Positions 11,045 through 55,876 are shown, numbered from the stretch's first letter. The stretch: 64,000 nucleotides of DNA from an uncultured Candidatus Saccharibacteria bacterium (GCA_964633325.1 CAZWFS010000001.1:3063-67062), one strand, 5' to 3'. Notes: generated from the sequence alone by a model not told the origin. A program made the numbers and translations.

Positions 11045-11068
11045 TATACCATAATACTATTTAATTGT

Positions 11069-24243: not shown

Positions 24244-24449
24244 TACCAATAATAAGGTTTTCTGGTAATGATAGTGGTACCAGCTACCTGACGTATTACG
24301 TACAGAGTACCACCAAGTTATTATACAAATATCAAAGGAATTGCGTATAGCTAAGGAGTATCTTGGCAACGGCTTGCCAGAGTTAGGATTATCAGCAGCC
24401 TAAGAAAAACGAGAAAACTAGTTTTGTATATATAGTTAGCTTTTGCGGT

Positions 24450-26264
24450 TTAGCGATAGCCCTCGGCTTGTTTGTCAAACATTTCTTTGTAAAGCCCGTC
24501 TTTATTTTTCATAAGTTGTGAGTGTGGTCCTTGCTCAATAACTTCACCGTCACGCATTACATAAATTGTTTCTGCACGTCTAACAGTGCTAAATCGGTGG
24601 GAAATGATTATTGTGGTCTTGTGTTTACTGTGAGCTTCAAGTGTCTTAAAGATTTCATACTCACTTTTTGCGTCTACGGCAGCAGTAGGTTCGTCCAAGA
24701 TTAAAATATCAGCGTCCCTAAAGAGCGCACGGGCTAAAGCAATCCTTTGCCATTGACCTCCTGACGGTTCAATACCGTCCTTGAAACCCACCTCAAGTAC
24801 CTGTTCGTATTGTTTCGGGTACTCTTTGATAAAAGGTTCAGCGTTAGCAATTTGTGAAGCCTTATGAACTCTTTTATTGTCACTAAAATCTTCAACTCGC
24901 CCAAGGGCAATGTTATCCCGAACCGAAAATGGGTAGTCGTTGAAGTTTTGAAACAACACACCAATGTGAGTGTAGTAGCTAGTTAAATCTAATTCTCTTA
25001 CATCTGTACCATTCACTAGTATTCTGCCTTCATCAGGGTCGTAAAAGCGGAGCAACAGTTTAATTACGGTAGTTTTACCAGCCCCATTCTCACCTACAAA
25101 TGCCAGGCTGTCACCAGGCTTAACGGTGAAGCTAACATTTTTAAGGGCTAGTTTTTCACTATTGGGATACTTAAATGATACGTTTTCAAAAGTAATAGTC
25201 GGGTTGGTCTTTGACGATAGCTCTACTGGGTTCTTCGGTTGTGGCATTTGTGGCTTCACATCAAACAGCCAGTACAAATCTTTCATGTACTCATTATTGT
25301 CGTAGATAAAGCTGAGTGAGTTAACGATAAGGCTTAATGAGCTGCCAAACTGCAAGATGATTCCACTGTAAAAGCTGTAGTCGGCTAGACTAAGAGTGCG
25401 GTCAAGTACTTTTTGAAGTAGCCAAAGCGTAACCCCTGCCGCCACAAGCACCTCGGTAGTTAAGCCAGCAAACATTCTTCCTTGCGTATTTCTGAGATAC
25501 TTGAGCTGGCGATTATAGAAGTCCGTATGTAGTCCCTCTAAAAAGTTAATTAAGTGGCTACGTGTTCCAAAGATTTTTGTTTCTTGTAGCTTATTTTTAT
25601 CTTGTAAGTACTGAGTAGTTCGGTGTGCCAATAATGGCTTGTCGCCCTTTTCGCCCCATAAGTTCCACTTTAATTTACTAAATCTTTTCTCTGCTAAAAA
25701 TCCAGGTATCAGAGAAGCTGCCATAACGAAGATTAGCCACGGCGCAAATGTCGCTACCACAATTAGGGTTGAAACTAATCTAACTACAGAGTGCAGACAC
25801 TGCAATATATAATTAGCGAAGTTCTGTGGAGTGTAGGAGTATTCTTGCTGTAACTTTTGAAGTTTTTTCTCAAAGTCATGGTCATGGTGTTGCTCCATAT
25901 CCAGCCCTGAAACGGCATTATTGAAATCAACGGTTATTCTCACGTACCATTTAATCCATGTTTTTCGTTCAATAAAGGTAAGCCACCGCCACGCAAAACG
26001 CTCGCCAAGTACTGCTAGAGTTGATAAGGCAAGCAGAAGATATACATAAGAATTAGATACGGGTTGATTTTGGAACACTTTAGTTAATTCACCGATGATA
26101 CGACTACCGAAATAGATTGTAAGAATACTTGACGTTACTTGTAGGGCAATTAGTAGCAAATAACTAATCAGCGAAGCTTTATCTATCTGCCAATAAAGAC
26201 GTATAGTGCGCCAAACGTTTTTGCGCAATGAGTAACTAGCAGATTGGTGTTTTGGTTTACTCAT
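24450..26264 (-). CDS. ABC transporter, fused permease and ATP-binding protein (exporter type)
   Basis: N-terminal six-TM domain, then Walker A GENGAGKTT, signature LSGGQWQRIALARAL and Walker B ILILDEPTAAVD. Confidence 0.85.
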   Translation of the reverse strand: MSKPKHQSASYSLRKNVWRTIRLYWQIDKASLISYLLLIALQVTSSILTIYFGSRIIGELTKVFQNQPVSNSYVYLLLALSTLAVLGERFAWRWLTFIERKTWIKWYVRITVDFNNAVSGLDMEQHHDHDFEKKLQKLQQEYSYTPQNFANYILQCLHSVVRLVSTLIVVATFAPWLIFVMAASLIPGFLAEKRFSKLKWNLWGEKGDKPLLAHRTTQYLQDKNKLQETKIFGTRSHLINFLEGLHTDFYNRQLKYLRNTQGRMFAGLTTEVLVAAGVTLWLLQKVLDRTLSLADYSFYSGIILQFGSSLSLIVNSLSFIYDNNEYMKDLYWLFDVKPQMPQPKNPVELSSKTNPTITFENVSFKYPNSEKLALKNVSFTVKPGDSLAFVGENGAGKTTVIKLLLRFYDPDEGRILVNGTDVRELDLTSYYTHIGVLFQNFNDYPFSVRDNIALGRVEDFSDNKRVHKASQIANAEPFIKEYPKQYEQVLEVGFKDGIEPSGGQWQRIALARALFRDADILILDEPTAAVDAKSEYEIFKTLEAHSKHKTTIIISHRFSTVRRAETIYVMRDGEVIEQGPHSQLMKNKDGLYKEMFDKQAEGYR

Positions 26265-26270
26265 ACTAAC

Positions 26271-26762
26271 TTAGCTCTCATCTTTCATTAACAGTATTGG
26301 CGGGTCAAAAAAGCTCATTTCATCTTTATCGGGTGGCTGTAGCTGGCTGGCAGATTTCTCAAGTCGTTCACGTGTTAGTGGTGCGTCAAGCTCTGTTTCT
26401 TTTTTATTACGAGTATCAACACGCTGCCATAGTTCCTCAAAAGGTAGCTCTAAATAATGTAACTCAATCCTTAATCCATTAGAATGAGCTTCAAGCCTTA
26501 ACTTATCTCGCTCCTCACGTCCCCAGAAACCATTTTCAAGAACAACATTGCTACCTGACTTCGCTAACTTTAATGCCTTTTTCCATTGTTCGGCTTCAAT
26601 ATCCGCCCTGGCTTTCTCGTCAAAGAAGCTAATGCCACGTTCGTATAGCTCTTGGTCTGGACTCATGACAACTGCTGGCATTTCACTAGCCAGTTTCTTT
26701 GCAAGCGTAGACTTACCAGCACCTGGCAAACCGCATAACAATACTAGAGTTCCTTGTTTCAT
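26271..26762 (-). CDS. small P-loop kinase-like protein (AAA_33/zeta-toxin/phosphotransferase-like)
   Basis: Walker A LLCGLPGAGKSTLAK at the N-terminus, about 160 aa. Confidence 0.5.
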   Translation of the reverse strand: MKQGTLVLLCGLPGAGKSTLAKKLASEMPAVVMSPDQELYERGISFFDEKARADIEAEQWKKALKLAKSGSNVVLENGFWGREERDKLRLEAHSNGLRIELHYLELPFEELWQRVDTRNKKETELDAPLTRERLEKSASQLQPPDKDEMSFFDPPILLMKDES

Positions 26763-28237
26763 TTAATTTCCTTATCTAAGTTAATTGTACGACTTATGCC
26801 GACCTGACGTAAGAAGTATTTATCGTGTGAAGCAATTAGCATTGCGCCTTGATAATTTTGCAGTGCAGCTTCAATCTTTTCTCTAGTCGGTAAGTCTAAA
26901 TGATTGGTTGGCTCGTCAAGGATTAGTAGTTGGTTTTGAGAAAGAAGCAACTTAGCAAAACTTAGCTTTGATTGCTGACCACGAGATAGTTCACTCGGCT
27001 TCTTTCTAAGCTCGTTTTCGTCTAGTCCTAGACTTCGTGCTTCACGATAAATTGCTGTTGAGGTAGCAGTTGTAACTTCAAGATTTTCAAAATTAGTCAG
27101 GCTGTAGTCCAGTCCATTAACGTCTTGTGAGAAATAACCAAACTTTATATCTTGTCCTACTTCTACAGTGCCAGTATTCGGCGTGAGTAAGTGAGCAGCA
27201 ATTTTAAGTAGCGTAGTTTTGCCACTGCCATTTGTACCTTGAATATGTAGTCTTTCGGTTCCTCGTATTTCAAAGTCAGGGTACGTAATAGTCTTATTGC
27301 TGTAGTTTTTTCTAACATTTTCAGCTCCTAGAATAAGCTTAGTTGGCGGAACATTCCCACCTAGTGTAACTTTATAGTTTTTGCTGGATTCTGGCTTCTC
27401 AACTTCCTCTAATTGCTCAAGCCGACCTTGTAACATTTTAGAGTTTTGCCCGAACTTAACAGTTACACGATTACGGAAAAAGTCCCTTTGGTACTTATCG
27501 TTATCATTGCGTTTAATATGCTTATGGGCGTGTTGGCTCTTATCGCTCTGTACCTTAATAGCTTTTTCTAGTCGTTTGCGTTCCTCAATGTTGCTTTCAT
27601 ATTTTGCATATTCACTCTGATATTCAATTTCCTTTTGTTGTTTGTAGAAATCGTAATCCCCACCGTATTGCTTAAGTTCGCCGTTGCGTAGTTCGGCAAT
27701 ACTAGTTGAGACTTTGTTGATGAAGTGCCTATCGTGGCTTACAAGCACAATACCGCCCCTAAAGTTTTTAACGAATTGTTCCAACCATACTAGACCGCCA
27801 GCGTCTAAATTATTGGTAGGCTCATCAAGCAGCAACATTGTTGGTTCTGGGTCTTTTGCGAGTACTTTCGCTAGTGCCAAGCGTGTTTTCTGACCACCAC
27901 TTAAGCTAGAAACAGCTCTGGTTTTTGGTACGCCTTCAAGCCCAACCAGACTTAGCGTATGGTCAATTTTCCAGTCTTCGCTGTGCTTATCAAAGCTATC
28001 TTGAATAGTGCCAACTGATTCAGCTTCCTGTGGCACATAGCCTACTGCTTCATGATGTAGTGCAATGTTGCCACTATCAGGCTTTAGCTCCCCTAAAACT
28101 ATTTTAAGCAAAGTAGTTTTACCCGCTCCATTTTCGCCAATAAGAGCAATGACCTCGCCAGCATTAACTGACAGACTTACATCTTTAAGCACAGGTTTAT
28201 CTCTGTATGATTTGTGTATGTGTTGCAAGGTAAACAT
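26759..28237 (-). CDS. ABC-F family ATPase (two tandem NBDs, no TM domain)
   Basis: Two Walker A motifs (GENGAGKTT and GTNGSGKTT), two LSGGQ-like signatures (LSGGQKTRL and LSRGQQSKL) and two Walker B motifs. Its 492 aa are in the range of antibiotic-resistance (ARE) ABC-F proteins. Confidence 0.8.
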   Translation of the reverse strand: MFTLQHIHKSYRDKPVLKDVSLSVNAGEVIALIGENGAGKTTLLKIVLGELKPDSGNIALHHEAVGYVPQEAESVGTIQDSFDKHSEDWKIDHTLSLVGLEGVPKTRAVSSLSGGQKTRLALAKVLAKDPEPTMLLLDEPTNNLDAGGLVWLEQFVKNFRGGIVLVSHDRHFINKVSTSIAELRNGELKQYGGDYDFYKQQKEIEYQSEYAKYESNIEERKRLEKAIKVQSDKSQHAHKHIKRNDNDKYQRDFFRNRVTVKFGQNSKMLQGRLEQLEEVEKPESSKNYKVTLGGNVPPTKLILGAENVRKNYSNKTITYPDFEIRGTERLHIQGTNGSGKTTLLKIAAHLLTPNTGTVEVGQDIKFGYFSQDVNGLDYSLTNFENLEVTTATSTAIYREARSLGLDENELRKKPSELSRGQQSKLSFAKLLLSQNQLLILDEPTNHLDLPTREKIEAALQNYQGAMLIASHDKYFLRQVGISRTINLDKEIK

Positions 28238-28448
28238 ATAAACTCCTAACTAAAAAAACCGAGCGTTGGTTAACGAAATATCGCCACACAACTGCTCGGT
28301 CTTTTACAAGGGTTTAACTGATAGAAAAACAATCAAATAGCAAAGCTACACAAAGCTGTGTGAACGACTTTAGCGGTTGATTGTTACTATCATAAGTACG
28401 TTTAACTCCTTTAGATAGCTACATTGTATAACAATTATGTTTATCTTG

Positions 28449-28994
28449 TCAAATTGACAGTTTTATTATCTCGTCTACAACTTTTTCAAGTGGCTGTTCT
28501 GCATTAACAAGCATTGCGCCATAGCTTTTCATTTGTTCGTCAATAGTATTATTCCAACCTAGTATATCTTTTAAGTCATCGGGGTGTTTTCCGTAATCAT
28601 TATTAGTTCTGTCATCAAGACGTTGCTGCAATACTTCATTACTAATTGAAAGGCTTATGACCTTATCAAATAAGTCCCATACATCTTTATCATTTGGAGT
28701 TGTACCGCATAGAAAAAAAGGCTTACCTTTAGTTTTAGCAAGTTCGGCAATTTCTTCTACTTTTGAGCGTTCTACTTTTAACCAATACCGCTTACGCCAC
28801 TCGTTAGTAGTATCCGTCCACCCTTTTTGCTCAGCAGCTTTTTTATCAGTTGAGCGGTTGTACCACACCCTAAAATTATCTTCATCAACATCATAAGCGT
28901 CATATCCACGCCTTTTTAATTCAAGCCGAATGGTTGATTTTCCAGTTCCTGAAATCCCAGTAATGAATATGAGTGGCATAGAGTAATTATACAA
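28449..28994 (-). CDS. small P-loop kinase-like protein
   Basis: Walker A ITGISGTGKST, about 180 aa. Architecture resembles small nucleotide/antibiotic kinase folds. Confidence 0.45.
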   Translation of the reverse strand: MYNYSMPLIFITGISGTGKSTIRLELKRRGYDAYDVDEDNFRVWYNRSTDKKAAEQKGWTDTTNEWRKRYWLKVERSKVEEIAELAKTKGKPFFLCGTTPNDKDVWDLFDKVISLSISNEVLQQRLDDRTNNDYGKHPDDLKDILGWNNTIDEQMKSYGAMLVNAEQPLEKVVDEIIKLSI

Positions 28995-29154
28995 AATTAT
29001 ATGCTCTGGAATAGTTGCTGTTTAAGGCACATACAGGCGTTTTAACGTGAGTTTATGGCAAACCTGCGGAATTGTAGGGAAACGGACTTTTCGTACAGCA
29101 AATCTGCAAAAAACAAAGAGAAAACACTGCGTTTTCAAATAATCTGTCAGAAAA

Positions 29155-29625
29155 CTATTGTCCTTGCTTATGTGGCGCATTCTTACCGTTAAAACCAGGT
29201 TGCACAGCAATTCTAGCTTTCCATTCTGCGTTATCAAGCACTGATACTGGTTCGGCGTTGTGTAGCTCCCGAAAGTCTTCACGAGCTGCTTTAATGACAC
29301 TACTAATTACTAAAGCACTGGGATAGAAATGTGGTGTTAGCAGTATTTGGGTCTTACTGCCAATATGCTGTTTGTCTAATACCTGGTAATAAAGGTGTGA
29401 AGGAAATATATACAATCCTTGTTGCTTGTAGTCCCCGTCTTCTATTCCGAAGTCTTTACCGATATTTGTTATAAATATAAATCTAACGTTGCAGTTACTA
29501 AGCAAACCACCACGCAAGGTTGAAGCCGTTACAGGATTAAGAGCGTGTACCCAATCGTTTAGCACATACCTTTCCAGCAGCCGTCCATTGGCTTCTATGT
29601 CGGCGTAAAGGAAATTAAAAGTCAT
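29155..29625 (-). CDS. hypothetical protein; its start overlaps the upstream HTH gene's stop
   Basis: ORF overlaps the upstream HTH gene by 11 nt, suggesting an operon; no motif. Confidence 0.3.
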   Translation of the reverse strand: MTFNFLYADIEANGRLLERYVLNDWVHALNPVTASTLRGGLLSNCNVRFIFITNIGKDFGIEDGDYKQQGLYIFPSHLYYQVLDKQHIGSKTQILLTPHFYPSALVISSVIKAAREDFRELHNAEPVSVLDNAEWKARIAVQPGFNGKNAPHKQGQ

Positions 29626-29857
29626 AAGCCACTACTTCACCTAACTTTGAAAGGTATAAAAGATTTGTGCGAGCATTATTTATCTTTTCAGCGAAGACCT
29701 TTTCATTACGAAAATGTCGGTAAAAAGTGTCCCTGCTGATACCAGCATAAGCGCAAGCTTCCGAAATACTTGAGCCGTGCTGCAAAGCGTCTTCCAGCTT
29801 GCTCATTACGGTGTAATTAACTTTGGCGGGTCTGCCGTTAGCTTTTTTATTTGTCAT
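29615..29857 (-). CDS. small helix-turn-helix DNA-binding protein
   Basis: GSSISEACAYAGISRDTFYRHF is a typical HTH of transposase-OrfA or terminase-small-subunit type. Confidence 0.45.
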   Translation of the reverse strand: MTNKKANGRPAKVNYTVMSKLEDALQHGSSISEACAYAGISRDTFYRHFRNEKVFAEKINNARTNLLYLSKLGEVVAYDF

Positions 29858-29985
29858 AAAACTCCTGTTTGTTTTTGTTTAAGGCTCTCTATTTATTATG
29901 ACAAAAATAGCACTTTAGTTATCTGACATTAGTAGAAATATAGCTACAGTGAGTATTTACCTGTCTGTCCGTATAAAATAGGACT

Positions 29986-30753
29986 ATGAAGAAGTCCGAA
30001 CTACAAAAATTGGTTGATGAACTTTTTGCTCAAGATTATCAAGGAGCAAGCCAATCTTACTCACGACCTGTTCTTTGGCCGACAGATTACAATAAAATCA
30101 TTGAAACCGCTCGCAAGAAACTAGGAATAACCAGTAAGGCACTTATGATTATTGGTAAGAACCAGGGCATATTGAGCCGTAAAGACGGAGTTATTGGCGC
30201 AAAGGATTACTACCCAATAGCCGAGGACAAGTATCTTGAGTTGGTTATCGCTCATATAAAAAGTAGCTCTAAGGCTAAGACTGATGTTCAAGCAAAGGAG
30301 CACTTTTATTCAGTGGTTGATGAAGTCCTTGGGCGAACTGGACTATCGGAAGAATGGCGGGAGTATGTAGCGGTATTCATCGTAACTAATATGCCACCAA
30401 GTAAAAACTTTCCAGCACCTTACCCATTCATTACTGTCCAAGATACTGATGACGATTCTGTAACTATCAAAATCCACAGAGGCATACGATATGAAGAATA
30501 TATTACGGCGTGGGCTGCTCTAGCCGAGTTTCTAGGACTAGGCAGACGTAAGGCTAAAAAACTTAGCGAGAAAACAGCAGCAATCCATGCTCAAATGTAT
30601 GGCAAGCGAGAGTTCTACGGACTTACGTACAGACAATTAGCAGAGGAGTACGGCATTGAACGCCTTACCGTTGATGACGCAAAGGACTACGTTAAGAAAG
30701 TCATTAAAAGACAAAAGAAACTGCGCAATGGGGGGACAGATTTAACTAAGTGA
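29986..30753 (+). CDS. hypothetical protein; first gene of the integrative element
   Basis: ORF only. Confidence 0.35.
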   Translation: MKKSELQKLVDELFAQDYQGASQSYSRPVLWPTDYNKIIETARKKLGITSKALMIIGKNQGILSRKDGVIGAKDYYPIAEDKYLELVIAHIKSSSKAKTDVQAKEHFYSVVDEVLGRTGLSEEWREYVAVFIVTNMPPSKNFPAPYPFITVQDTDDDSVTIKIHRGIRYEEYITAWAALAEFLGLGRRKAKKLSEKTAAIHAQMYGKREFYGLTYRQLAEEYGIERLTVDDAKDYVKKVIKRQKKLRNGGTDLTK

Positions 30754-30881
30754 TTTGCGTCTCCTTATAAATTATTGCATAGCATGTACGATAGTAATGT
30801 GATGATTTAAGGAACCGTTCTAGGACAAATATAAACGTCATCACATCTAGTGCGGTTCCCATTTCAGAAGGGGGTTCCATC

Positions 30882-31850
30882 ATGGACCCAATTAAAAAAA
30901 TAGACGAGCTTATGGGGCAGCATTTCCCAGAGCAGGAATACATTGTGGACAGGCTTGTGCCTGACGGTTCAATAACAATCCTGTCGGGTGCGTCAGGCTC
31001 GTTCAAGACCTACTCACTACTACAAATCGCAATAGCGGTGGCGAGTGGTAAACCGCTCTTTGAGCAGTACCAAACACAGCAAACAGGCGTACTCATCATA
31101 GATGAGGAAAACGGTGAACGCCTAATGCAGAAACGGCTGTACCAGCTCGGTGCAACAGCAGATTTGCCAATCTACTTTACGCCAAGAATGGGCTTTGAGC
31201 TGACAGAAGAAAATATAGATAACGTGCTGTTATCGTGCCTAACATACGACTTGAAGCTAGTTGTTATAGACAGCTTAATCCGTGTGCATAGCGCAGACGA
31301 AAACAGTGCCAGAGAAATGGCAAAAGTCTTTAAGCTACTACGTAAGTTTACAGAACAAGGCGTAGCGGTATTGGTAACACAGCATAACCGCAAGCCTGGC
31401 GCAAACGGTGGCGGAGCTGGCAATGAAATGCGTGGCTCAACCGATATACGGGCAGCCATAGATAGCCACATAGGCGTTACTCGCAAGAATAAGTGGTACC
31501 TAACCTTTGACCAAACCAAGCAACGCTACGATGTGGAACTTGACCCGTTCAAAGTTAAGGTGAATGCCGATAAAGACAGCTTCACCTTTGAGTACCTCGG
31601 CACTCTTACGGCGGAAGCTAACACGGCAGAACAGCTATACAAAGCGGTTACTGACCTGCTGGCGGAACATGAGCAACTTTCACAGAAAGAGCTGCTGGCA
31701 AAGCTTGCAGATACCGAAGCTAAGACTAACGAGCATACCTTGCGGGAACTGCTTAAACAGTGGGTTGCAGAAGGTGTGTTACCTCAGCCAAAACCAGGTG
31801 TTGGTAAGACTAAGTACTACCACCTTGAAGCAGAGGTTAGTAATGAGTAA
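30882..31850 (+). CDS. RecA-like AAA ATPase (AAA_25/RepA-type, replicative helicase-loader-like)
   Basis: Walker A SGASGSFKTY and Walker B LVVIDSLIRVH. Typical of plasmid and phage replication ATPases. Confidence 0.55.
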   Translation: MDPIKKIDELMGQHFPEQEYIVDRLVPDGSITILSGASGSFKTYSLLQIAIAVASGKPLFEQYQTQQTGVLIIDEENGERLMQKRLYQLGATADLPIYFTPRMGFELTEENIDNVLLSCLTYDLKLVVIDSLIRVHSADENSAREMAKVFKLLRKFTEQGVAVLVTQHNRKPGANGGGAGNEMRGSTDIRAAIDSHIGVTRKNKWYLTFDQTKQRYDVELDPFKVKVNADKDSFTFEYLGTLTAEANTAEQLYKAVTDLLAEHEQLSQKELLAKLADTEAKTNEHTLRELLKQWVAEGVLPQPKPGVGKTKYYHLEAEVSNE

Positions 31851-32067
31851 GCCAGAACCGAAAAACCGAGCTACTAATAGTAGTGCTAGCTTACTCGGTT
31901 CCGACAACCCACTACATGAAATGTACGAGCGTCCATTAACTAAGGCAGACGAAGAACAGATGATGTTCAACCTCGTCAACTTTGTAGAAACGCTGATAGC
32001 AATGGACAAGCAACACAAACAATGGAAAGAAAACAAGCAAGTAACTAAGGAGCAAGAAAATGAATAA
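31843..32067 (+). CDS. small hypothetical protein; ATGAGTAA start/stop overlap with the upstream gene
   Basis: In-frame ATG overlapping the upstream stop and preceded by GAGG. The longer track ORF 31564.. lies antisense and out of frame inside the upstream gene. Confidence 0.3.
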   Translation: MSKPEPKNRATNSSASLLGSDNPLHEMYERPLTKADEEQMMFNLVNFVETLIAMDKQHKQWKENKQVTKEQENE

Positions 32068-32512
32068 GCAAGACAAGGCAACAGAAAAGTTAATGGAAAA
32101 TATATGTACCGCAGTAGCCGAGTATCACAGCAAGGCAATGTCGGACCACGTAAAGACAGCAATGCAGCAACTAGCCAAAGCTGGATATGCGCTAAGGCGC
32201 CCACCTTTTGGTTACTCAACCACAGAAACTAGCGGATTGTTCCGCATAAACCGTATAGGCATGGCTATGCGTGTAGCAATGCAGGAAGCAGCCAACGGTG
32301 AGGTTTCTAGCGAGGAGTTTAAGCTACGGCTTTCTATCCTCTTTAGCGGTGAATCACTGGATATACGTAGTAAGGCTAGTCTAAAACGAATAGTTTCAAA
32401 TCCGTACTATATCGGCTTAATACGTTGTGGCAATGAGCTGTATAAGGGCTTGCACGAGCCACTGATTACGGCAGAGGAGCAGCAGAAGCTAATAGAGATA
32501 TTGGAAGCATAG
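32060..32512 (+). CDS. recombinase-domain-only protein (serine recombinase fragment lacking the catalytic resolvase domain and zinc ribbon)
   Basis: RRPPFGY and NPYYIGLIRCGNELYKG match the recombinase-domain motifs seen in the three full-length serine recombinases in this window (NPFYVG, NPYYCG, NRYYMG). Confidence 0.5.
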   Translation: MNKQDKATEKLMENICTAVAEYHSKAMSDHVKTAMQQLAKAGYALRRPPFGYSTTETSGLFRINRIGMAMRVAMQEAANGEVSSEEFKLRLSILFSGESLDIRSKASLKRIVSNPYYIGLIRCGNELYKGLHEPLITAEEQQKLIEILEA

Positions 32513-32590
32513 CCACTTGGGGGAGTTTATCTCCCCCTTGCTGGTAGCAATTACCAGAGGTACATCATAAAATATAAGTAGGAAACAATA

Positions 32591-34093
32591 ATGAATTATT
32601 TAATAGCACGGGTATCAGACCAAGACCAAAAGAAAGCCTTACCAGCGCAAAAGAAACGACTTGAAGACTACGCCAAGAGCTTAGACTGGATTGAGGATAA
32701 AGATTACAAATATATTGAGTTTGACGAAACAGCGTTCAAAGATAATCGCAAACGATTTAACGAACTAGTTCTAGCACCAATAGTAAATGCAATAGATAAA
32801 TCCATAATAGTCCACGATAAAGTGGACAGATTCACGAGGGATTCTTCATCAGAAGAAAAATCTATCCTTACCAGGCTTGCTAAACAAGACAAGATTGAAC
32901 TGCACTTTCCGCACGACCACCTTATTATTAACTCTGAATCAGCAGCAACGGCACATTTCCAGTTTGATATAAATGTAGCTTTAGCTAGCTACTATTCAGG
33001 GGCTATTCGGGACAATGTTAAACGCCGATTTGACCAAATGCTAGATGACGGTATCTGGATTGGACGTGCGCCAATAGGCTACGTTAATTATCAAGAACAC
33101 GACGCTAACGGCAAAGTTATTTTTAAGGGCATACGTTTGGACTTAGAGCGTGACTACCACGTCAGGAAAGGCTTTGAGTTGCGCTCCACTGGGCTGTCCT
33201 ACAAAGCTATTGCCAAAGAAATGAAGAAAGCTGGTCTGCGTAGCCGTACTGAAAAAGCCGTAGTAATCAGTGCAGCGCAGTGGGAAGAAATACTTAACAA
33301 TCCGTTTTATGTAGGCAGAATGGTGTTTAAGGGTAAAGAGTATGACCATAACTATGACACTATTGTAGAGCCTTGGCTCTGGGACAAAGTACAGGAAGTC
33401 AAAAACAGACGGGCTAATGGCAAAACCAAGTACAACAGTAAGCCATTCCTGTTTAAGAACTTAAAGTGCCACGTCTGCGGGTATTCAATAACCTTTGACG
33501 GACCTAAGCACAATGGCAAGACTTACGGGAAGTGTACCGAGTATGGTGGCAAGCACGGCGCAGTATGGGTAAATGAAGAAATACTTATTGAGCAAGTGCG
33601 TGAGCTGCTAAGAGCCATTCAGCTTCCTAAACGTCTGTTACCTAAATTAGTTGCTGAAATAGATAAGAACCACGCTAGTGAGCAAGACCGCTATGTTACT
33701 ACTAGAACTCGCTTAGAAAAAGAATATAACGCCCTGGACGAAGAACTAGAGGACTTATTTAAAGACCGCAAGCAGTTCAAAACCCGCCACGAGCTGTTTG
33801 AGCGAATGGTTAAAAAGATTGAAAAGCGTCAGAAAGATATTATGGAAGACCTGAAAGACCACAGTGCTGGCGATAAGGCGTTTGTTATCGGCGCAAGCTA
33901 CTTATTAGATGTATGTAGTCGTGCAGTTGAGTTGTTTGACGCTGAAAGTACGAAAGTGGAGCAAAAACGGTACCTAATAGAGTTCATACTTACGTACATA
34001 ACTTTGGACGGCGAAAAGCTGCATTTAACACTTAAGGAACCGTTTGAAGCGGTCATTTCATTGGCAAAAACTGGGAAATGGTACACCCGATAG
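32591..34093 (+). CDS. large serine recombinase (integrase)
   Basis: N-terminal catalytic motif LIARVSDQDQ, recombinase domain (GYVNY...NNPFYVGRMVFKG), Cys-rich zinc ribbon (CHVCGYS...CTEYGG) and a C-terminal coiled coil. Confidence 0.8.
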   Translation: MNYLIARVSDQDQKKALPAQKKRLEDYAKSLDWIEDKDYKYIEFDETAFKDNRKRFNELVLAPIVNAIDKSIIVHDKVDRFTRDSSSEEKSILTRLAKQDKIELHFPHDHLIINSESAATAHFQFDINVALASYYSGAIRDNVKRRFDQMLDDGIWIGRAPIGYVNYQEHDANGKVIFKGIRLDLERDYHVRKGFELRSTGLSYKAIAKEMKKAGLRSRTEKAVVISAAQWEEILNNPFYVGRMVFKGKEYDHNYDTIVEPWLWDKVQEVKNRRANGKTKYNSKPFLFKNLKCHVCGYSITFDGPKHNGKTYGKCTEYGGKHGAVWVNEEILIEQVRELLRAIQLPKRLLPKLVAEIDKNHASEQDRYVTTRTRLEKEYNALDEELEDLFKDRKQFKTRHELFERMVKKIEKRQKDIMEDLKDHSAGDKAFVIGASYLLDVCSRAVELFDAESTKVEQKRYLIEFILTYITLDGEKLHLTLKEPFEAVISLAKTGKWYTR

Positions 34094-34155
34094 GATTCGA
34101 ACCTACGACCTTTGGCTCCGCAAGCCAACGCTCTATCCAGCTGAGCTACGGGTGC
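34079..34155 (-). tRNA. tRNA-Arg (anticodon read as GCG; unusual and to be verified) with encoded CCA; overlaps the recombinase stop codon
   Basis: The reverse complement reads GCACCCG-TA-GCTC-AGCTGGATA-GAGC-G-TTGGC-TTGCGGA-GCCAA-AGGTC-GTAGG-TTCGAAT-CCTAT-CGGGTGT-A-CCA. The cloverleaf has a G1:U72 pair. Confidence 0.55.
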
Positions 34156-34995: not shown

Positions 34996-35088
34996 GAACC
35001 GAACGTGGCGGAGAGGGAGGGATTCGAACCCTCGCGGGGGATTGCTCCCCCCTATCGATTTAGCAAACCGACCCCTTCAGCCTCTTGG
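34996..35088 (-). tRNA. tRNA-Ser (anticodon GCU) with a long variable arm and encoded CCA
   Basis: The reverse complement reads GGAGAGG...TCGGT-TTGCTAA-ATCGA-(19-nt variable arm)-GAGGG-TTCGAAT-CCCTC-CCTCTCC-G-CCA. Confidence 0.75.
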
Positions 35089-35494
35089 GTACCTCTCCTT
35101 GCGCCAGACTCGGCCATTATAACAAACGCGGAGGAATACGGGCCTGGAATTTTTAGGGGCCCTCCGACTTTATAATTACTCGCTCAGGATTTTTCGGTCT
35201 CCTGGCCCGCCATACACTTGTCAAATGGCGGGACATTCGGGTCTGGAACCTTTCACCCTGTTTCTGTCCCTATACAGTCTAGCGGATAAAATGGGACACA
35301 ACCAGACTAGTTTGTGCCATTTTTGTAAAATCTCATCTGAAAATGAGACAAATGGAACAAGCGTCTCATTAAAAGACGTGTCCCATTCTATGAGGTAACT
35401 TGACTACAATCATAAGTTATGACATAGCAAGCATAACTACACGCTTATGTTAGTATAGAAGCGAAATAGTCCGTGAATCCTTGCGAGAGACGGA

Positions 35495-37099
35495 CTATTT
35501 TACTTTCTTGACCATTTTCTTGCGCCTTTCCATAGACAAAGCCAGAATAGCTTCGGTAATGTGGCGCATATTCATTGGCTCATGCCAGTTAACTTTGGTG
35601 ACTCGCACATAATGCGTCCTAGGCTTACCGTATTGATGTCTTTGGATGGTGACATGGTCGTCAATGGCGGCTTTGGCAAAAAACGCTAGGCAAAAATGCC
35701 GTTTGATAGCCGGATTAGCATTAACGTACGCTTTGGCAAAATCTAAGCCTTCCGCAAGCTGTAAGGCGCGGTCTCGACGAAAAGTGATAGTCGCTAAACG
35801 CTTCTCAGCTTCCTTGATAACGGATTTAGCTTGCTTAATGTCATGGCTGATCCGCTTTTGTTCGCTCTTCATGAGCTCGGCCGCAATCATTTTGTCATAG
35901 TAGGCCTGCAGCAAGTTCTCCTGCTCAGCTAGCAAATTATTTAGCCGCTGCTGTTGCTGTTTGACCTCGGTTTCAGCAAAGTGCTGTTCGCTCTTAAGCT
36001 CCTCGCCTACTTGCTTAACCAATAGTTCCCGGTCATCGGCCGAAACCTTGAGCCTCTTGAATTGCCGAGCGATAACTTCTTCGATCTTAGCGACTGGCAC
36101 ATATGGCAGGTCACAGCTACCGTCCTTACGATTCAGACAAAAGTAATAGCCGTATTCAACACCGTATCGATTCTTAGATACGCAGTAACAAAGGTGGCGA
36201 TCACAGCGACCGCATAAGAGTAGTCTGGATAGGTAATGGAAGTGGTGCCGGTGCTTGTTATCCCTAATTAGGTGATTAAGTCGCACCATTTGGACAGCTG
36301 CAAAGACAGATGACGTGACAATGGGCTGATGTCTGCCCTTATACTCGACGCCCATATAACGGACATAGCCCATGTAATAGCGATTGGTCAGCATCTTGTT
36401 AAGGCCGCCTAAGCTAAGTGGCGCTACGACTGAGCGTCTACGGATACGGCTCCTGAGGCCGCGTCGAGCCAGAGCTTCACACAACTGTCGTTGTCCATAG
36501 TCGCCGGTGGCATAACGTTCAAAGGCCCAGCGCACCAGTGGCGCTCGTACCGCATCGAGGATCACTGAGCGGACTTCGCGCCTATTAATTCGTTCAATGA
36601 CGTTGGTGTAACCAATGGGGGCTTGGAATGGTGTACCTCCTTGCTTGGCTTTCTCAGTGGCTCCTTTTAAAGCTTCAGCCGCCAGGTTACGGCTATAGAA
36701 CTCAGCAATGGCAGCCATAATGCCGTGTAGTAACTGGCCGGATGGTGTATCATCGATGTTTTCAGTGACACTGACAAGCTGCGCCCCACCTTTCTTGATG
36801 GCAAGGCCAATCATGACATCGTCGTGGAGATTGCGAGCTAGCCGGTCAATCTTATGAACAATGACGTATTCAATCTTCTTCTTGTCGCACAAGTCTTGTA
36901 AAAGCTGCTGCAATCCTGGTCGAGCAGCTGATCTGGCTGACTCACCACGGTCGACGTATTCTTTAATCTTGGTAGCACCCAGCTCCTTGGCTTTGCGTCT
37001 ACAAGCCTCTCGCTGCGCTGGAATCGAGAATCCATCCCGATTCGTATTACCTTTGATTTGATCGAGCGTTGACACTCGCAGATATATAGCTACTTTCAT
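35495..37099 (-). CDS. large serine recombinase (integrase); start placed at the internal ATG that has a GGGAGGAG RBS
   Basis: MKVAIYLRVSTLDQ catalytic motif, recombinase domain (NRYYMGYVRYMG), CxxC...C zinc-ribbon region and a long C-terminal coiled coil. The track ORF carries a 66-aa N-terminal extension. Confidence 0.8.
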   Translation of the reverse strand: MKVAIYLRVSTLDQIKGNTNRDGFSIPAQREACRRKAKELGATKIKEYVDRGESARSAARPGLQQLLQDLCDKKKIEYVIVHKIDRLARNLHDDVMIGLAIKKGGAQLVSVTENIDDTPSGQLLHGIMAAIAEFYSRNLAAEALKGATEKAKQGGTPFQAPIGYTNVIERINRREVRSVILDAVRAPLVRWAFERYATGDYGQRQLCEALARRGLRSRIRRRSVVAPLSLGGLNKMLTNRYYMGYVRYMGVEYKGRHQPIVTSSVFAAVQMVRLNHLIRDNKHRHHFHYLSRLLLCGRCDRHLCYCVSKNRYGVEYGYYFCLNRKDGSCDLPYVPVAKIEEVIARQFKRLKVSADDRELLVKQVGEELKSEQHFAETEVKQQQQRLNNLLAEQENLLQAYYDKMIAAELMKSEQKRISHDIKQAKSVIKEAEKRLATITFRRDRALQLAEGLDFAKAYVNANPAIKRHFCLAFFAKAAIDDHVTIQRHQYGKPRTHYVRVTKVNWHEPMNMRHITEAILALSMERRKKMVKKVK

Positions 37100-37156
37100 A
37101 GCTCCTCCCTTCATTAAGTTAGCCTTCTTATGATGGAAGGATGAGATAATATAGCT

Positions 37157-37753
37157 ATGAGACCCGAAGACTTTACCCGTATAGACTTCAGCCAGATAGA
37201 CCGTATGGCTGCAAATGCTTTGCGGGCGGCGGAACTCGTCCAGCCCAGTGTAGATAGGGCTATTGAAGTGCTCAGTCGCATACAAACAGATATTCAACCG
37301 TATATGCCCAAGATCTTAGAAGCCGTAGAACGGATTCGGCCGGTTATCCTTCGTACTTCAAGCATCTATTTCATGCCATCAAATACGTTAACTCCTACTC
37401 AAACCCAGCCCTTGCTTGCCGAGCCAGCAGTCCCACCCACTCAGCGGCTTAAAAAGAACATCTGTTTAGTTGCCGGTAACAGTTTCAAATTTAAAAACAA
37501 AGCACTCCGAGCCGTAACCCTAACATCTAAGCCTGGCAAGCTCTTGCAACTGCTACTAACAAGTAACGAGCACTTCGTCACTGATGCAGCCATCTGCCGT
37601 GAGCTAGACTTGGAAGACATACGTGGTTTTAGCTATGTGCTGCGTGATCTTAAGAAATTTTTCCGCCAAAATGAGCTCGAAATTATTATTGAAGACCGCA
37701 AAAATCCTAACGGCTATATTCTCATAGATATCCGAAAAACAGATACAAACTAA
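37157..37753 (+). CDS. hypothetical protein; divergent neighbour of the integrase and a possible element regulator
   Basis: ORF only. Confidence 0.3.
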   Translation: MRPEDFTRIDFSQIDRMAANALRAAELVQPSVDRAIEVLSRIQTDIQPYMPKILEAVERIRPVILRTSSIYFMPSNTLTPTQTQPLLAEPAVPPTQRLKKNICLVAGNSFKFKNKALRAVTLTSKPGKLLQLLLTSNEHFVTDAAICRELDLEDIRGFSYVLRDLKKFFRQNELEIIIEDRKNPNGYILIDIRKTDTN

Positions 37754-37845: not shown

Positions 37846-39171
37846 ATGAGTGAGCAAACATTAGCAATCCAACAAGTAAGCGTCAAGGATTTAAATTCAG
37901 CGCCATACAATCCCCGTAAGTGGAGTGAAGATGCTATTAAGCAGCTGACCGACAGCATCCAGCAGTTCGGTTTGGTTGATCCAATTATTGTGAACGGTAC
38001 ACCCGAGCGTAAGAACGTGGTCATTGGTGGCCACTTCCGTTTGAAAATTGCCAAAGACCTGGGATTCAAAGAAGTGCCAGTAGTCTACGTTAATATTCCA
38101 GATGAAGCCCGCGAAAAAGAGCTGAACCTGCGGCTCAATAAAGCTGTTGGTGACTGGGAGTGGACGTTGCTGGCTGAATTCGATGAAACTCTGCTGGTAA
38201 ATGTTGGTTTCACTAGCGAGGAACTGGACACCATCTTCGACCTTGATGAAGTCATACCAGAAGAATTTGACCTGCAGAAGGAGTTAGATAAGCTCAAGAT
38301 CACTGAGATCAAGGTTGAGAAAGGCGACGTCTACCAGCTCGGTGATTCGCGTCTAATGTGCGGTGACTCCACCATTCCTGAAGATTTTGCCAAGCTGATG
38401 AACGGCGAACAGGCTGACATGTGCCTGACTGACCCACCCTATATCCTCGACTACTTAAAAAGTGGCAAACGCCATGGCAAGCCTACCGAAGGCTTTGGTG
38501 CTAAGAAAAACCGTCGCTACCTGGAAACTGACGTCTTGCCAGACAACTTTACTGAGCTTTGGATGGCCAACGTCGCTGCCCATGCCAAATCAGACTTCAG
38601 CATCATTGTCTACGAGAACTGGAAAAACCTACGCATCATCTGGACCGAGATGGAAAAGTACTGGAAGGTTAAAAACATGATCGTCTGGCATTTGCCAAAC
38701 CGCAATCAAGGTTTTGCAGCCAAGTACAAGTTTTTCTCTAAGCACGACATTGCCATGGTCGGTGCTAGCGGCGATATACCGTACAACCATGATGAGGAGC
38801 CGGAGGGCCTGCAAGAAGAATACGAATCAGCACTTTTCGCAATTGCTGGCAAACCTCAGTGGGAGGGCTACCAAAAAGGTAGAAAGTACCAGCCAACCGA
38901 CTTTATCGACTTTAATGCCGCCGACGAGAAAAGCTCTGGTCAGGCCATTATCTTCGGTGTTAAGCCGCTGGAAATCCTAATCCCATACATAAAGGTCCTG
39001 ACTAAACGTGGTGACCTAGTTGTAGAACCATTTTGCGGCAGCGGCAGCACTTTAGTTGCAGCCACCAAACTGCACCGGCGCTGTTACATCATGGAAAAGT
39101 CACCAGTCTACGCTGAAGTCGCTATGGATCGCTGGGAAAAAGCGACTGGTCTCAAGCGAGTTAAGCTATGA
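37846..39171 (+). CDS. ParB-like nuclease N-terminal domain fused to an N4/N6 DNA methyltransferase
   Basis: The ParB-N region (GGHFRLKIAKDLGFKEVPVVYV) is followed by a DPPY catalytic motif (CLTDPPYILDY) and the SAM-binding motif FCGSGSTLVAA. An AAGGAG RBS precedes the ATG at 37846; the track ORF starts at a GTG at 37825. Confidence 0.7.
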   Translation: MSEQTLAIQQVSVKDLNSAPYNPRKWSEDAIKQLTDSIQQFGLVDPIIVNGTPERKNVVIGGHFRLKIAKDLGFKEVPVVYVNIPDEAREKELNLRLNKAVGDWEWTLLAEFDETLLVNVGFTSEELDTIFDLDEVIPEEFDLQKELDKLKITEIKVEKGDVYQLGDSRLMCGDSTIPEDFAKLMNGEQADMCLTDPPYILDYLKSGKRHGKPTEGFGAKKNRRYLETDVLPDNFTELWMANVAAHAKSDFSIIVYENWKNLRIIWTEMEKYWKVKNMIVWHLPNRNQGFAAKYKFFSKHDIAMVGASGDIPYNHDEEPEGLQEEYESALFAIAGKPQWEGYQKGRKYQPTDFIDFNAADEKSSGQAIIFGVKPLEILIPYIKVLTKRGDLVVEPFCGSGSTLVAATKLHRRCYIMEKSPVYAEVAMDRWEKATGLKRVKL

Positions 39172-39566
39172 GCCGTAACCAAAAAACAGATAAGAAACGC
39201 TTGCTAGAGAAGTTAGCTAAGACACCAATTGTGGAAATCGCCTGCAAGCAAGCTGGTGTACCACGTAGCACCTACTACCGGTGGCGTAAGGATGATGAAA
39301 CCTTTGCCAACCAGTGCGACGAAACCATTGAGCAAAGCGCAGGCCTGATCAATGACATGGCTGAGAGCCAGCTTATCCAAGCCATTAAAGACCAGAACAT
39401 GACGGCTATTATCTTTTGGTTGAAGCACCACCATCCAACCTACTATGCCCGACTTCGGCTGGATGGGCACATCAAACATGAGAGTGAGGAACTAACGCCA
39501 GAACAGACCGAGGCGGTCGTTCGGGCGCTGGCATTCTTGAAGGAGAGTAACGATGGCAGTGGCTGA
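39168..39566 (+). CDS. terminase small subunit-like HTH protein
   Basis: IACKQAGVPRSTYYRWRKDDETF HTH. It overlaps the methylase stop (ATGA) and lies immediately upstream of terL. Confidence 0.5.
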   Translation: MSRNQKTDKKRLLEKLAKTPIVEIACKQAGVPRSTYYRWRKDDETFANQCDETIEQSAGLINDMAESQLIQAIKDQNMTAIIFWLKHHHPTYYARLRLDGHIKHESEELTPEQTEAVVRALAFLKESNDGSG

Positions 39567-55784: not shown

Positions 55785-55876
55785 TGGCGGAAGGGGTGGG
55801 ATTCGAACCCACGGACCCGTTGCCGGGTCTCCGGTTTTCAAGACCGGTGCACTCGACCAGACTATGCGACCCTTCC
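55785..55876 (-). tRNA. tRNA-Ser (anticodon UGA) with a long variable arm and encoded CCA
   Basis: The reverse complement reads GGAAGGG...CCGGT-CTTGAAA-ACCGG...GTGGG-TTCGAAT-CCCAC-CCCTTCC-G-CCA. Confidence 0.75.

Follow-up and report, generated by a model that had tools for sequence, protein, structure and literature searches.

A tRNA-Arg-associated integrative element of Patescibacteria with a non-catalytic recombinase paralog and an attachment site inside its serine integrase gene

The region described here forms the integration module of an integrative element of 9.8 kb, which also carries a putative replication module and sits at the CCA end of tRNA-Arg in a Patescibacteria bacterium. The 150-aa gene ahead of its integrase is well supported as a functional, conserved, non-catalytic serine recombinase paralog, pared down to the alphaE helix and DNA-binding domain 1. 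Sequence comparison also gives good support for a second feature: integration removes the last 40 codons of the integrase gene, and excision would restore them. We favor, tentatively and at clearly less than an even chance, the reading that the small protein is a DNA-binding regulator of the integrase; the account as a whole, which joins a dead paralog, a regulator of the integrase and a split integrase gene, falls just short of an even chance. Positions are those of the window, the whole 64,000-nucleotide stretch that was analyzed.

An attachment site within the integrase gene

Because comparison with related loci puts the left end at 24275, the element spans about 24275-34084, rather than the 29986-34155 proposed in the initial annotation; the low-GC stretch of the window coincides with these limits. 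The two ends have just the 6-nt core TGGTAC in common, the left-border hexamer recurring at the right junction (Table 1). No displaced tRNA fragment, the signature of a classical tRNA-gene island (Islander), was found at the left end.

Table 1. Features of the element and its target tRNA gene
Feature	Position	Strand	Remarks
attL crossover core TGGTAC, left border	24275..24280	.	related-element similarity starts exactly here
Detached integrase 3' end (WY + 40 codons + stop)	24275..24403	+	in frame with the integrase only after end joining
MsbA-like ABC exporter, cargo	24450-26264	-	Pfam/NCBIfam
P-loop kinase, cargo	26271-26762	-	Pfam/NCBIfam
ABC-F ribosomal-protection-like protein, cargo	26759-28237	-	Pfam/NCBIfam
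P-loop kinase, cargo	28449-28994	-	Pfam/NCBIfam
156-aa protein of conserved pair	29155-29625	-	pair in L001, L003, L006
80-aa HTH protein of conserved pair	29615-29857	-	pair in L001, L003, L006; HTH homologue in L017
255-aa conserved protein, first plus-strand module gene	29986..30753	+	position kept in related loci
AAA_25 P-loop ATPase, helicase-like, putative replication protein	30882..31850	+	Pfam E 2e-30
74-aa protein	31843..32067	+	conserved in L001, L005, L006; dN/dS 0.06-0.15
150-aa mini-recombinase, alphaE helix + DNA-binding domain 1	32060..32512	+	no catalytic, zinc-ribbon/coiled-coil domains
Highly conserved spacer, candidate promoter/operator	32513..32590	+	85-97% identity
Large serine integrase, integrated (truncated) form, 500 aa	32591..34093	+	R, S, D, R, R catalytic set
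attR crossover core TGGTAC	34079..34084	.	encoded CCA end + 3 nt of tRNA-Arg
tRNA-Arg, anticodon gcg, intact, integration target	34079..34155	-	ARAGORN; Rfam tRNA 69.8 bits

The 500-aa protein has both the catalytic domain and the DNA-binding domain 1 of a large serine integrase (Pfam Resolvase, E 1e-11; Pfam Recombinase, E 9e-13, the latter passing the cut-off). Its N-terminal motif is ARVSDQDQ, and the residues R, S, D, R and R occupy gamma-delta positions 8, 10, 67, 68 and 71. Pfam Zn_ribbon_recom did not match the 500-aa integrase; a CxxC...C motif spans residues 293-314, the long charged stretch after it is coiled-coil-like by composition, and PF13408 is present in some homologues. The stop codon, TAG at 34091-34093, lies 15 nt into the tRNA-Arg 3' end (CCA counted), and the final two codons plus the stop are tRNA sequence. 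The initial annotation was right that an integrative element with a full serine integrase occupies the 3' end of tRNA-Arg, and that the integrase gene ends inside it. It missed the location of the attachment site within that gene.

Joining 32591-34084 to the sequence from 24281 onward yields a 538-aa ORF that runs across the reconstructed attP, and its detached part has been kept as coding sequence. The tail peptide is conserved in the related loci L001, L005 and L006. Could this conservation at 24275-24403 reflect merely a DNA arm bound by the integrase, with an accidental in-frame continuation? Conservation is required of an attachment-site arm in any case, and no circle was seen for the element; even so, this reading is very improbable. 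The conserved stretch runs about 100-125 nt, far past a 25-bp arm, the variable columns of the tail are distributed 2/2/12 over the codon positions, and its dN/dS of 0.02-0.16 indicates purifying selection. Homology links the tail peptide to the C-termini of the uninterrupted relatives P0064 and P0052, and in the attL context it has no in-frame start, TAG standing before TGG. The same logic holds in a clade at tRNA-Asn, where L004 has a junction between integrase and tRNA fragment and L008 has an uninterrupted integrase gene with the core TGGCTCCC.

With the crossover site placed within the integrase gene, the 500-aa enzyme made from the integrated copy would end in tRNA-encoded residues, and the 538-aa form made from the excised circle would have the conserved 40-residue tail. 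The element would thus carry two integrase isoforms, one for each of its states. We looked for a circular contig, a circular excision junction and an empty site for this element and found none; the uninterrupted integrase junctions that were seen are in chromosomal contigs.

Among the other genes, the cargo block (24450..28994) is low in GC and variable, with different genes in its place in L001, L005 and L006. The 80-aa HTH protein, which gave weak matches to HTH_17 and to the N-terminal HTH of terminase small subunits, competes as a candidate for the role of excisionase or regulator. No Pfam or PHROG match was obtained for the 255-aa protein, which has a distant homologue in L019/L020. The AAA_25 protein, whose gene has a dN/dS of 0.03-0.05 between close elements, matches PHROG primase-helicase families through the helicase part of phage primase-helicases, and is compatible with the replication capacity that the initial annotation had suggested on its basis. 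The 74-aa gene overlaps each of its neighbors, the mini-recombinase gene included, by 8 nt, which suggests a single translationally coupled operon.

A recombinase paralog reduced to alphaE and domain 1

The mini-recombinase gene has its own start codon and a Shine-Dalgarno sequence (AAGGAG, 32047-32052). The ORF contains RRPPFGY and NPYYIG and lacks catalytic and zinc-ribbon domains, as first annotated, but it is not restricted to a recombinase domain: the first ~40 residues form alphaE. The Pfam Resolvase match covers only profile positions 105-143 of 145, that is, the alphaE end. An AF2 model (pLDDT 93.4) predicts a helix at residues 3-40 followed by an alpha/beta domain, and the top 17 Foldseek matches are all large serine recombinase structures, with 4KIS (E 1e-5), 6DNW and the Bxb1, SPbeta and phiC31 integrases among them; the best are integrase-DNA complexes. 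In HMMER searches the protein aligned to residues ~115-255 of many integrases, and its C-terminus coincides with the end of domain 1. It shares the alphaE and domain 1 fold of large serine integrases, and neither their catalytic nor their zinc-ribbon/coiled-coil part.

The gene shares its element with the integrase and lies directly upstream of it in every independent locus (L001-L006, L013/14, L026). The truncated paralog first noted beside the integrase is thus real and adjacent, but it is no copy of its neighbor, as the two are only 24% identical over the shared region. The proposal that it is a decayed integrase, a functionless fragment of a former second one, is the least credible of all readings: Pfam scores below the gathering thresholds and the absence of both normal integrase ends would fit, but nine database clusters at 55-97% identity all hold to 150-152 aa, dN/dS is 0.20-0.36 (dS up to 1.6) and indicates purifying selection, position and ribosome-binding site are retained, homology to longer relatives begins at the start codon, the same architecture recurs across the whole family, and we found neither a catalytic-domain remnant upstream in any frame nor, in the ORF, the frameshifts against a longer ancestral frame that the initial annotation had named as its refuting condition.

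The nearest relatives are other forms of 140-200 aa and proteins of 230-300 aa that retain the resolvase domain. An exhaustive HMMER search gave 61 best matches (defined as E<=1e-10), of which 60 were 92-301 aa long and without the zinc-ribbon/coiled-coil part. A sample of 28 mid-size relatives (246-291 aa) had mostly lost the nucleophile serine (replaced in 24) and D67 (replaced in 22), with R8 kept in 23, R71 in 26 and R68 in all 28. In four independent loci (L015, L016, L017/18, L019/20), such a mid-size paralog has a 505-526-aa integrase behind it within 250-290 nt, and the integrase runs into a tRNA gene in all of these where the contig reaches the gene end. The mini-recombinase is a member of a separate family of mostly serine-less paralogs, and the assignment of this family of 'dead' recombinases to a place directly upstream of tRNA-targeting large serine integrases is well supported. 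The related integrases in L007, L008, L009 and L021 have no such partner, so a partner of this type is not universally required.

Possible roles of the mini-recombinase

The 78-nt spacer ahead of the integrase gene retains its high identity across L001, L004, L005 and L006, despite synonymous sites near saturation in the L001 mini-recombinase gene and the L004 integrase gene. It contains two palindromes, GGGGGAG-TTTAT-CTCCCCC (32519-32537) and CTGGTA-GCAAT-TACCAG (32541-32557). The spacer had no Rfam family match, and its RNA fold z-score was only -1.75.

According to the reading that we favor, the mini-recombinase would dimerize through alphaE and bind DNA through domain 1, most probably at the two palindromes and possibly at an arm of the attachment site too, and would from there control when the integrase is made or active. 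Its co-transcription with the helicase operon would tie this control to the activity of the replication module. The persistence of the spacer where either neighboring gene can approach synonymous saturation argues for such a regulator, as does the distribution of constraint within the protein, in which domain-1 motifs are most conserved and alphaE varies. Near-identical mini-recombinase genes (dN 0.08) also accompany strongly differing integrases (dN 0.34) that occupy different sites within one MAG, and at 24% identity the protein is unlikely to read the same half-sites as its own integrase. On the other side, the conserved spacer could serve the integrase solely as promoter and leader, unrelated to the mini-recombinase, and the 5-nt spacers of the palindromes are tighter than the domain-1 contact spacing in 4KIS-type integrase dimers. 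The three active-site arginines kept in mid-size relatives hint at recombinase-like binding at a crossover-like site, not at a plain repressor.

A possible but rather unlikely alternative, raised in the initial annotation and compatible with the data, is a recombination directionality factor, which would bind the integrase or the attL/attR complexes and permit excision, in the manner of gp47, gp3 and SprB with other large serine integrases. Such a factor is required when attL recombines with attR and is inhibitory to attP x attB. As far as the available parts of PMC12286644 and PMC11795197 go, excision by large serine integrases requires a second element-encoded protein, and the available part of PMC11795197 presents known factors as structurally diverse, scavenged proteins. 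The mini-recombinase gene always adjoins the integrase gene and, being in the helicase operon, would be expressed when the element is active. However, the factors described in that part of PMC11795197 attach where DNA-binding domain 2 meets the coiled coil, and neither there nor in our literature search was a recombinase paralog reported in this role. The gene tree of the mini-recombinase conflicts with that of the integrases, and near-identical copies stand beside very different integrases. Other candidates are the 80-aa HTH protein, with its weak HTH_17-type similarity, and the 74-aa protein.

It is still less probable, though likewise compatible with the data and raised in the initial annotation, that the protein acts as a dominant-negative poison subunit, its alphaE pairing with the integrase or its DNA-binding domain competing for half-sites, so that complexes unable to cut both strands would stabilize the integrated or the excised state. 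The missing catalytic domain suits this role, as do mid-size relatives that lack the nucleophile and keep the fold, and alphaE, which is modeled with high confidence, would be unstable alone. Yet alphaE shows less conservation than any other part of the protein, although the N-terminal region of the integrase is well conserved, and the low identity to the DNA-binding domain of the integrase argues against half-site competition.

Relation to known systems

Our literature search found neither a non-catalytic paralog partner nor a split integrase gene described for serine integrases. The closest parallels to the latter are Mx8 IntP and the SSV-type 'suicidal' integrases, whose genes span attP (PMC6070905, PMC4383910 and, in its available part, PMC7253208); there too, the integrase gene is altered or split on integration and made whole again on excision. 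Those enzymes are tyrosine recombinases, whereas here a serine integrase exchanges only its last 40 codons. In mycobacteriophage BPs, attP lies inside the repressor gene and the integrated or free state decides its C-terminus (PMC4557955, available part); there it is the repressor gene that is split, with a tyrosine recombinase as integrase, unlike the present case, where the integrase gene itself is split.

We consider it doubtful, though conceivable, that direction is controlled by state-set isoforms (538 aa in the circle, tail-less in the chromosome) with the catalytically dead paralog as a second component. If so, a Patescibacteria integrase clade that targets the encoded CCA end would use a mechanism unseen in model systems, in which a dead paralog, reduced here to alphaE and domain 1, decides between integration and excision.

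Similar to the Bxb1 gp47, phiC31 gp3 and SPbeta SprB systems, the element pairs a large serine integrase with a small accessory gene of its own, and the integrase resembles the model enzymes in its Resolvase and Recombinase domains; its C-terminal half is Cys-rich and coiled-coil-like in composition. It differs from them in its target, the CCA end of a tRNA gene, and in the attachment site inside its own gene. The accessory protein, too, is of another kind, a recombinase paralog, whereas the known factors have no kinship with recombinases and contact domain 2 and the coiled coil (PMC11795197, available part).

The element also fits the description of tycheposons: it adjoins a tRNA gene and combines variable cargo with putative replication gene(s) and a site-specific integrase. 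Like those of Prochlorococcus, as far as the available part of their account describes them, it is small and its putative replication gene is of helicase type; this is resemblance only, since host and integrase type differ. Tycheposon hosts are cyanobacteria, and tyrosine recombinases are used by 910 of the 937 tycheposons and cryptic elements surveyed, the available part of that account reporting neither a dead-recombinase partner nor a split integrase (bioRxiv 10.1101/2020.12.28.424599).

No DNA-binding-only derivative of a large serine integrase is described in the literature that could be searched. By functional analogy, the mini-recombinase might be likened to a resolvase that represses its own promoter, or to truncated transposases that regulate transposition. 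Tn3 and gamma-delta resolvases in their autoregulation, and the truncated transposase regulators IS1 InsA and Tn5 inhibitor, regulate the reaction or their own gene by occupying DNA. Two adjacent serine-recombinase-family genes per integration module are likewise found in staphylococcal SCC, where CcrA and CcrB are both full-length, catalytic and act together. The partner here has no catalytic domain, or no serine in the mid-size relatives, and never a zinc-ribbon/coiled-coil part. Weak NCBIfam similarities to CcrA/CcrB were seen.

Borders and gene order of the tRNA-Arg element

At the right border of the element, the final codons of the integrase gene (TGG TAC ACC CGA TAG) are the opposite-strand reading of the CCA end and acceptor stem of tRNA-Arg, one of four tRNA genes in the window, and the two genes therefore overlap by 15 nucleotides. 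The initial annotation had described a full serine integrase gene ending within the 3' end of this tRNA; that overlap, like the overall observation made at the site, is confirmed, with genes and overlap as stated. Upstream of the integrase, the neighbors among the AAA_25, 74-aa and 150-aa genes overlap by 8 nucleotides, and an AAGGAG box lies 7 nucleotides 5' of the ATG of the 150-aa ORF. This ORF does stand beside the integrase as annotated, but it does not encode the recombinase domain alone: its product starts with helix alphaE, matching positions 105-143 of the 145 in the Resolvase profile. The alphaE helix is the tail end of the Resolvase domain in Pfam's definition.

GC content is 0.37-0.44 in the stretch from about 24.4 to 34.1 kb, a drop from about 0.49. 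In blastn comparisons with related loci, which were retrieved via homologs of the 150-aa protein, the common blocks lie at 30.85-34.16 kb and 29.0-29.9 kb, with an isolated short block at 24275-24379 that reaches 24447 in the comparison with one of these loci, L006. When aligned, similarity at the left end begins exactly at TGGTACCAGCTACC (24275), and further upstream the genomes all differ; at the right end, the element meets the tRNA at AAATGGTACACCCGA (34079). The only sequence common to both junctions is TGGTAC, and no longer direct repeat of the tRNA-Arg 3' end occurs elsewhere in the window, which is what a short-crossover serine integrase would lead one to expect. These borders give an element of 9.8 kb (24275-34084), and this locus comparison replaces the borders first proposed, 29986-34155.

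To the left of the conserved module the cargo varies. The window element carries an MsbA-like ABC exporter, two P-loop kinases and an ABC-F protein; the related locus L001 carries SMODS/SLATT, radical SAM and other genes, and L006 carries Mrr, hydrolases and others. The ABC-F protein scores 428.9 bits against the NCBIfam cut-off of 380 for 'ribosomal protection-like ABC-F family protein' and, flanked as it is by the exporter and the two small kinases, may be antibiotic-tolerance cargo in a Patescibacteria element. Mobile elements of Patescibacteria are poorly known, and these carry ribosomal-protection-type ABC-F and defense genes. The closest element type is the tycheposons, which are likewise tRNA-associated, with replication genes and cargo (bioRxiv 10.1101/2020.12.28.424599); unlike the serine integrase of the window element, their integrases are mostly tyrosine.

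Coordinates of features in and next to the tRNA-Arg element (window positions)
Feature	Coordinates	Strand	Remarks
ABC-F protein	26759-28237	minus	cargo
80-aa HTH protein	29615-29857	minus	
255-aa protein	29986-30753	plus	no family match
AAA_25 ATPase	30882-31850	plus	
74-aa protein	31843-32067	plus	
150-aa ORF	32060-32512	plus	
Spacer	32513-32590		78 nucleotides
Spacer palindrome, first	32519-32537		5-nucleotide spacer
Spacer palindrome, second	32541-32557		5-nucleotide spacer
Integrase ORF, 500 aa	32591-34093	plus	Pfam Resolvase and Recombinase domains; N-terminal ARVSDQDQ motif
tRNA-Arg	34079-34155	minus	anticodon gcg
tRNA-Ser(gct)	35006-35098		flank of second insertion
Second insertion	35104-55779		
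Serine integrase	35495-37297	minus	second insertion
Small-terminase-like protein	39168-39566	plus	second insertion
Second serine recombinase	50562-51935		second insertion; zinc ribbon
tRNA-Ser(tga)	55785-55876		flank of second insertion

The attachment site predicted within the integrase gene

Joining the integrase ORF via the right TGGTAC to the sequence past the left TGGTAC yields an unbroken ORF of 538 aa, which terminates in WYQLPDVLRTEYHQVIIQISKELRIAKEYLGNGLPELGLSAA. The predicted attP junction reads ...ACTGGGAAATGGTAC/CAGCTACCTGACG... and the predicted attB junction ...GGTAATGATAGTGGTAC/ACCCGATAGGATTCG..., with the slash at the point of joining. We infer that the last 40 integrase codons would be lost on integration and restored if the element were excised. 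The same tail peptide is present at the left ends of three related loci (L001, L005 and L006) although its nucleotides have changed: over the first 32 codons of the tail, the variable columns number 2, 2 and 12 at codon positions 1, 2 and 3, and pairwise dN/dS in the tail (0.02-0.16) is similar to that in the integrase body (0.08-0.13). No in-frame start codon is available to the tail while the element is integrated, and in the window a TAG stands immediately before the TGG. Homologous tails occur in uninterrupted relatives, namely P0064 (542 aa, ...REVDMAREYLGSGL...), P0052, P0093/P0097 and P0113. In contrast to these, most close database relatives terminate in variable tRNA-derived residues; they are 500-528 aa long and cover only 92-94% of the reconstructed protein. 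With a C-terminal 86-residue query, integrase-tRNA, flank-tail and integrase-tail junctions were all found as predicted proteins.

In the tRNA-Asn clade, the integrase gene of L008 is uninterrupted (core TGGCTCCC) and that of L004 reads into a tRNA-Asn-like 3' fragment, so that the clade shows the same predicted split-gene logic as the window element. L004 (12010-12060 and 15271-15345) is the second element within one MAG; its integrase ends in a 25-nucleotide fragment resembling the tRNA-Asn 3' end, and an intact tRNA-Asn lies 3.2 kb beyond, past ParE, phosphoesterase and SEC-C genes, an arrangement that suggests a later insertion at the same tRNA-Asn.

The exact attP junction had no matches in metagenome contigs, no circular contig turned up, and no empty attB was found via the flanking host proteins, which turned up only an identical occupied copy (L025). 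Comparing the loci of the tRNA-Glu clade with one another by blastn revealed no detached tail. The uninterrupted junctions that were found lie within chromosomal contigs and are perhaps decayed tandem arrays; tandem arrays (L026, L008) would explain the junctions but imply attP x attR-type events. L026, which has an uninterrupted junction, was considered as a circle and rejected: the contig has no terminal overlap, and its left piece is another allele, at about 80% identity. The integrated element of L026 has, at its left end (positions 1-470), the remaining 3' part of an integrase gene of another allele. In L008, a complete gene for 533 aa (positions 10001-11602) lies in a 789-kb contig at a distance of 1.1 kb from tRNA-Asn.

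An integrase whose C terminus is set by integration state would be a built-in state sensor. For serine integrases, we found no report in the literature of an attP-spanning integrase gene with a state-dependent C terminus. Among tyrosine integrases, attP-spanning genes are described from Mx8 and from SSV-type elements (PMC7253208, PMC4383910, PMC6070905), and a state-dependent C terminus is described for the BPs repressor (PMC4557955). Serine integrases were not known, as of the Islander paper (PMC4383910), to target tRNA genes; several serine-integrase clades here apparently target them, with entry at the CCA end. This apparent targeting and the predicted splitting of the integrase gene by integration raise the interest of the element.

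Recombinase paralogs paired with tRNA-targeting integrases

The 150-aa protein falls into nine database clusters, all of 150-152 aa, at 97% to 55% identity. In every locus recovered its gene lies directly upstream of the integrase, behind an AAA_25 gene and a gene for 61-75 aa, and this position holds for two different elements in one MAG; the search of the genome collection gave only two loci, both from one MAG. The protein aligns with residues 113-242 of the neighboring integrase at 24% identity and is 25% identical to the second integrase in the window. It is thus not a recent copy, and a recent duplication of the neighboring integrase is rejected; the initial annotation had proposed aligning the two to date the duplication.

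Best conserved are the domain-1 motifs RRPPFGYSTTETSGLFR, KRIVSNPYYIG and GLHEPL, and alphaE is variable. An AlphaFold model from a 41-sequence alignment (pLDDT 93.4), which supersedes a poor AF2 model from 10 close sequences (pLDDT 62.8), has a single long helix (residues 3-40) and then a compact alpha/beta domain. In a Foldseek comparison with the PDB, large serine recombinases account for all of the 17 best matches: the C-terminal domain of an A118-type integrase on DNA (4KIS, E 1e-5) ranks first, ahead of complexes of Bxb1, SPbeta and phiC31; a PDB sequence search gave marginal matches only (E 0.3). The protein keeps the subunit-contact helix of serine recombinases and their first DNA-binding domain and, judged by its sequence, is unable to catalyze recombination. 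Almost identical copies are paired with very different integrases at different sites: between L004 and L005 the 150-aa proteins are nearly identical (dN 0.08) and the integrases far apart (dN 0.34), whereas between the window and L001 the integrases are 89% identical and the 150-aa proteins only 55%. The gene trees disagree, which makes the module a mosaic.

In an exhaustive HMMER search, the family profile had 1041 matches at E<=1e-3, the best 61 of which (E<=1e-10) comprise 29 short proteins of 92-202 aa that resemble the 150-aa protein in form, 31 of 229-301 aa and one full-length integrase. The mid-size proteins have a complete Resolvase domain together with the recombinase domain and end where the 150-aa protein ends. 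When 28 of them were aligned with the two window integrases and gamma-delta resolvase, the nucleophile serine was found replaced in 24 (11 Ala, 5 Thr, 5 Asn, 2 Val and 1 Cys) and Asp67 retained in only 6; Arg8 is retained in 23, Arg68 in all 28 and Arg71 in 26. At four independent metagenome loci (L015, L016, L017/18 and L019/20), a 505-526-aa integrase lies 250-290 nucleotides 3' of the mid-size paralog on the same strand, and in the three with the gene end on the contig it extends 41 nucleotides into a convergent tRNA-Glu gene. The integrase of a partner-less relative, L021, extends into tRNA-Gly; tRNA-Glu and tRNA-Gly are alike entered at the tRNA's encoded CCA end, with similar element-side arms. 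In the cassette, the gene for a non-catalytic recombinase paralog precedes that for a serine integrase that targets a tRNA gene, and given these family-wide data the 150-aa protein is the most reduced form of this conserved two-gene arrangement. In the mid-size loci, the gap before the integrase (L015 3182-3462, L017 8775-9058, L019 2822-3071) holds a hairpin and a conserved ORF of about 45 codons (MSVGEARKKLG...), which may be a further small cassette component.

Large serine integrases rank among the major tools of genome engineering, and their directional control is an active structural question. To our knowledge, all of their cofactors known so far are unrelated 'scavenged' proteins; a conserved non-catalytic partner derived from a recombinase would, if true, be a new class of cofactor or regulator. 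CcrA and CcrB are also adjacent paralogs, but both are catalytic, unlike the 150-aa partner. We found no directionality factor described in the literature as a recombinase paralog; such factors are scavenged proteins of diverse kinds, and they bind close to the coiled coil (PMC11795197; PMC12286644).

Possible roles of the 150-aa protein, and the neighboring insertion

The spacer that separates the 150-aa gene from the integrase gene shows 85-97% identity across all elements and is more conserved than the flanking coding sequence, even where the 150-aa gene of L001 or the integrase gene of L004 is near synonymous saturation. It matched no Rfam family and gave a weak RNA fold signal, and an RNA structure is not supported. 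CTGGTA/TACCAG hexamers in both the spacer and the att core were judged not significant. In a Logan contig (L027, SRR13766249) from a sample with an identical copy of the element, the short-read assembly breaks about 105 nucleotides past the stop codon of the 150-aa gene, at the conserved spacer and integrase start; the break could reflect a repeat or variant there.

Given that catalysis is lost with alphaE and domain 1 kept, that the spacer is conserved, and that near-identical copies accompany different integrases, our leading but still tentative reading makes the 150-aa protein a DNA-occupancy regulator. Dimerized via alphaE, it would bind DNA that all of the elements share, with the spacer palindromes as the likeliest target, and once bound would gate integrase expression or activity. 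The gene reads in the same direction as the helicase operon, with which it overlaps. Against a regulator, the palindromes are spaced more tightly than domain 1 in integrase dimers, the mid-size relatives keep active-site arginines, and some related integrases have no partner. A regulatory role is plausible, and is now based on family-wide evidence. That the protein is a true directionality factor is rather unlikely; the element's 74-aa protein is another candidate for an excision factor, and so is its 80-aa HTH protein, which has weak HTH_17 similarity and a resemblance to the N-terminal HTH of terminase small subunits. A poison subunit acting via the retained alphaE is improbable, and the protein may have some other role. 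The initial suggestion of a decayed integrase fails, and a pseudogene is very unlikely, given the constant length and position, a dN/dS of 0.20-0.36 (dS up to 1.6), homology to longer relatives that starts at the start codon, and no catalytic-domain remnant upstream by tblastn or six-frame HMM search, frameshifted or otherwise.

Two tRNA-Ser genes that stand only 32 nucleotides apart in L005 are separated in the window by a second insertion, about 20.7 kb long. Along with its serine recombinases it carries a ParB-methyltransferase fusion, small and large terminase subunits and a 1104-aa helicase, and it may consist of a prophage with another element in tandem. PHROG 4102, the N-terminal HTH of terminase small subunits, is matched by the 80-aa HTH protein encoded in the tRNA-Arg element and also by the small-terminase-like protein encoded in this phage-like insertion. 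Together with a weak alignment between the two proteins, these matches could hint at a satellite-helper relation of the two elements.
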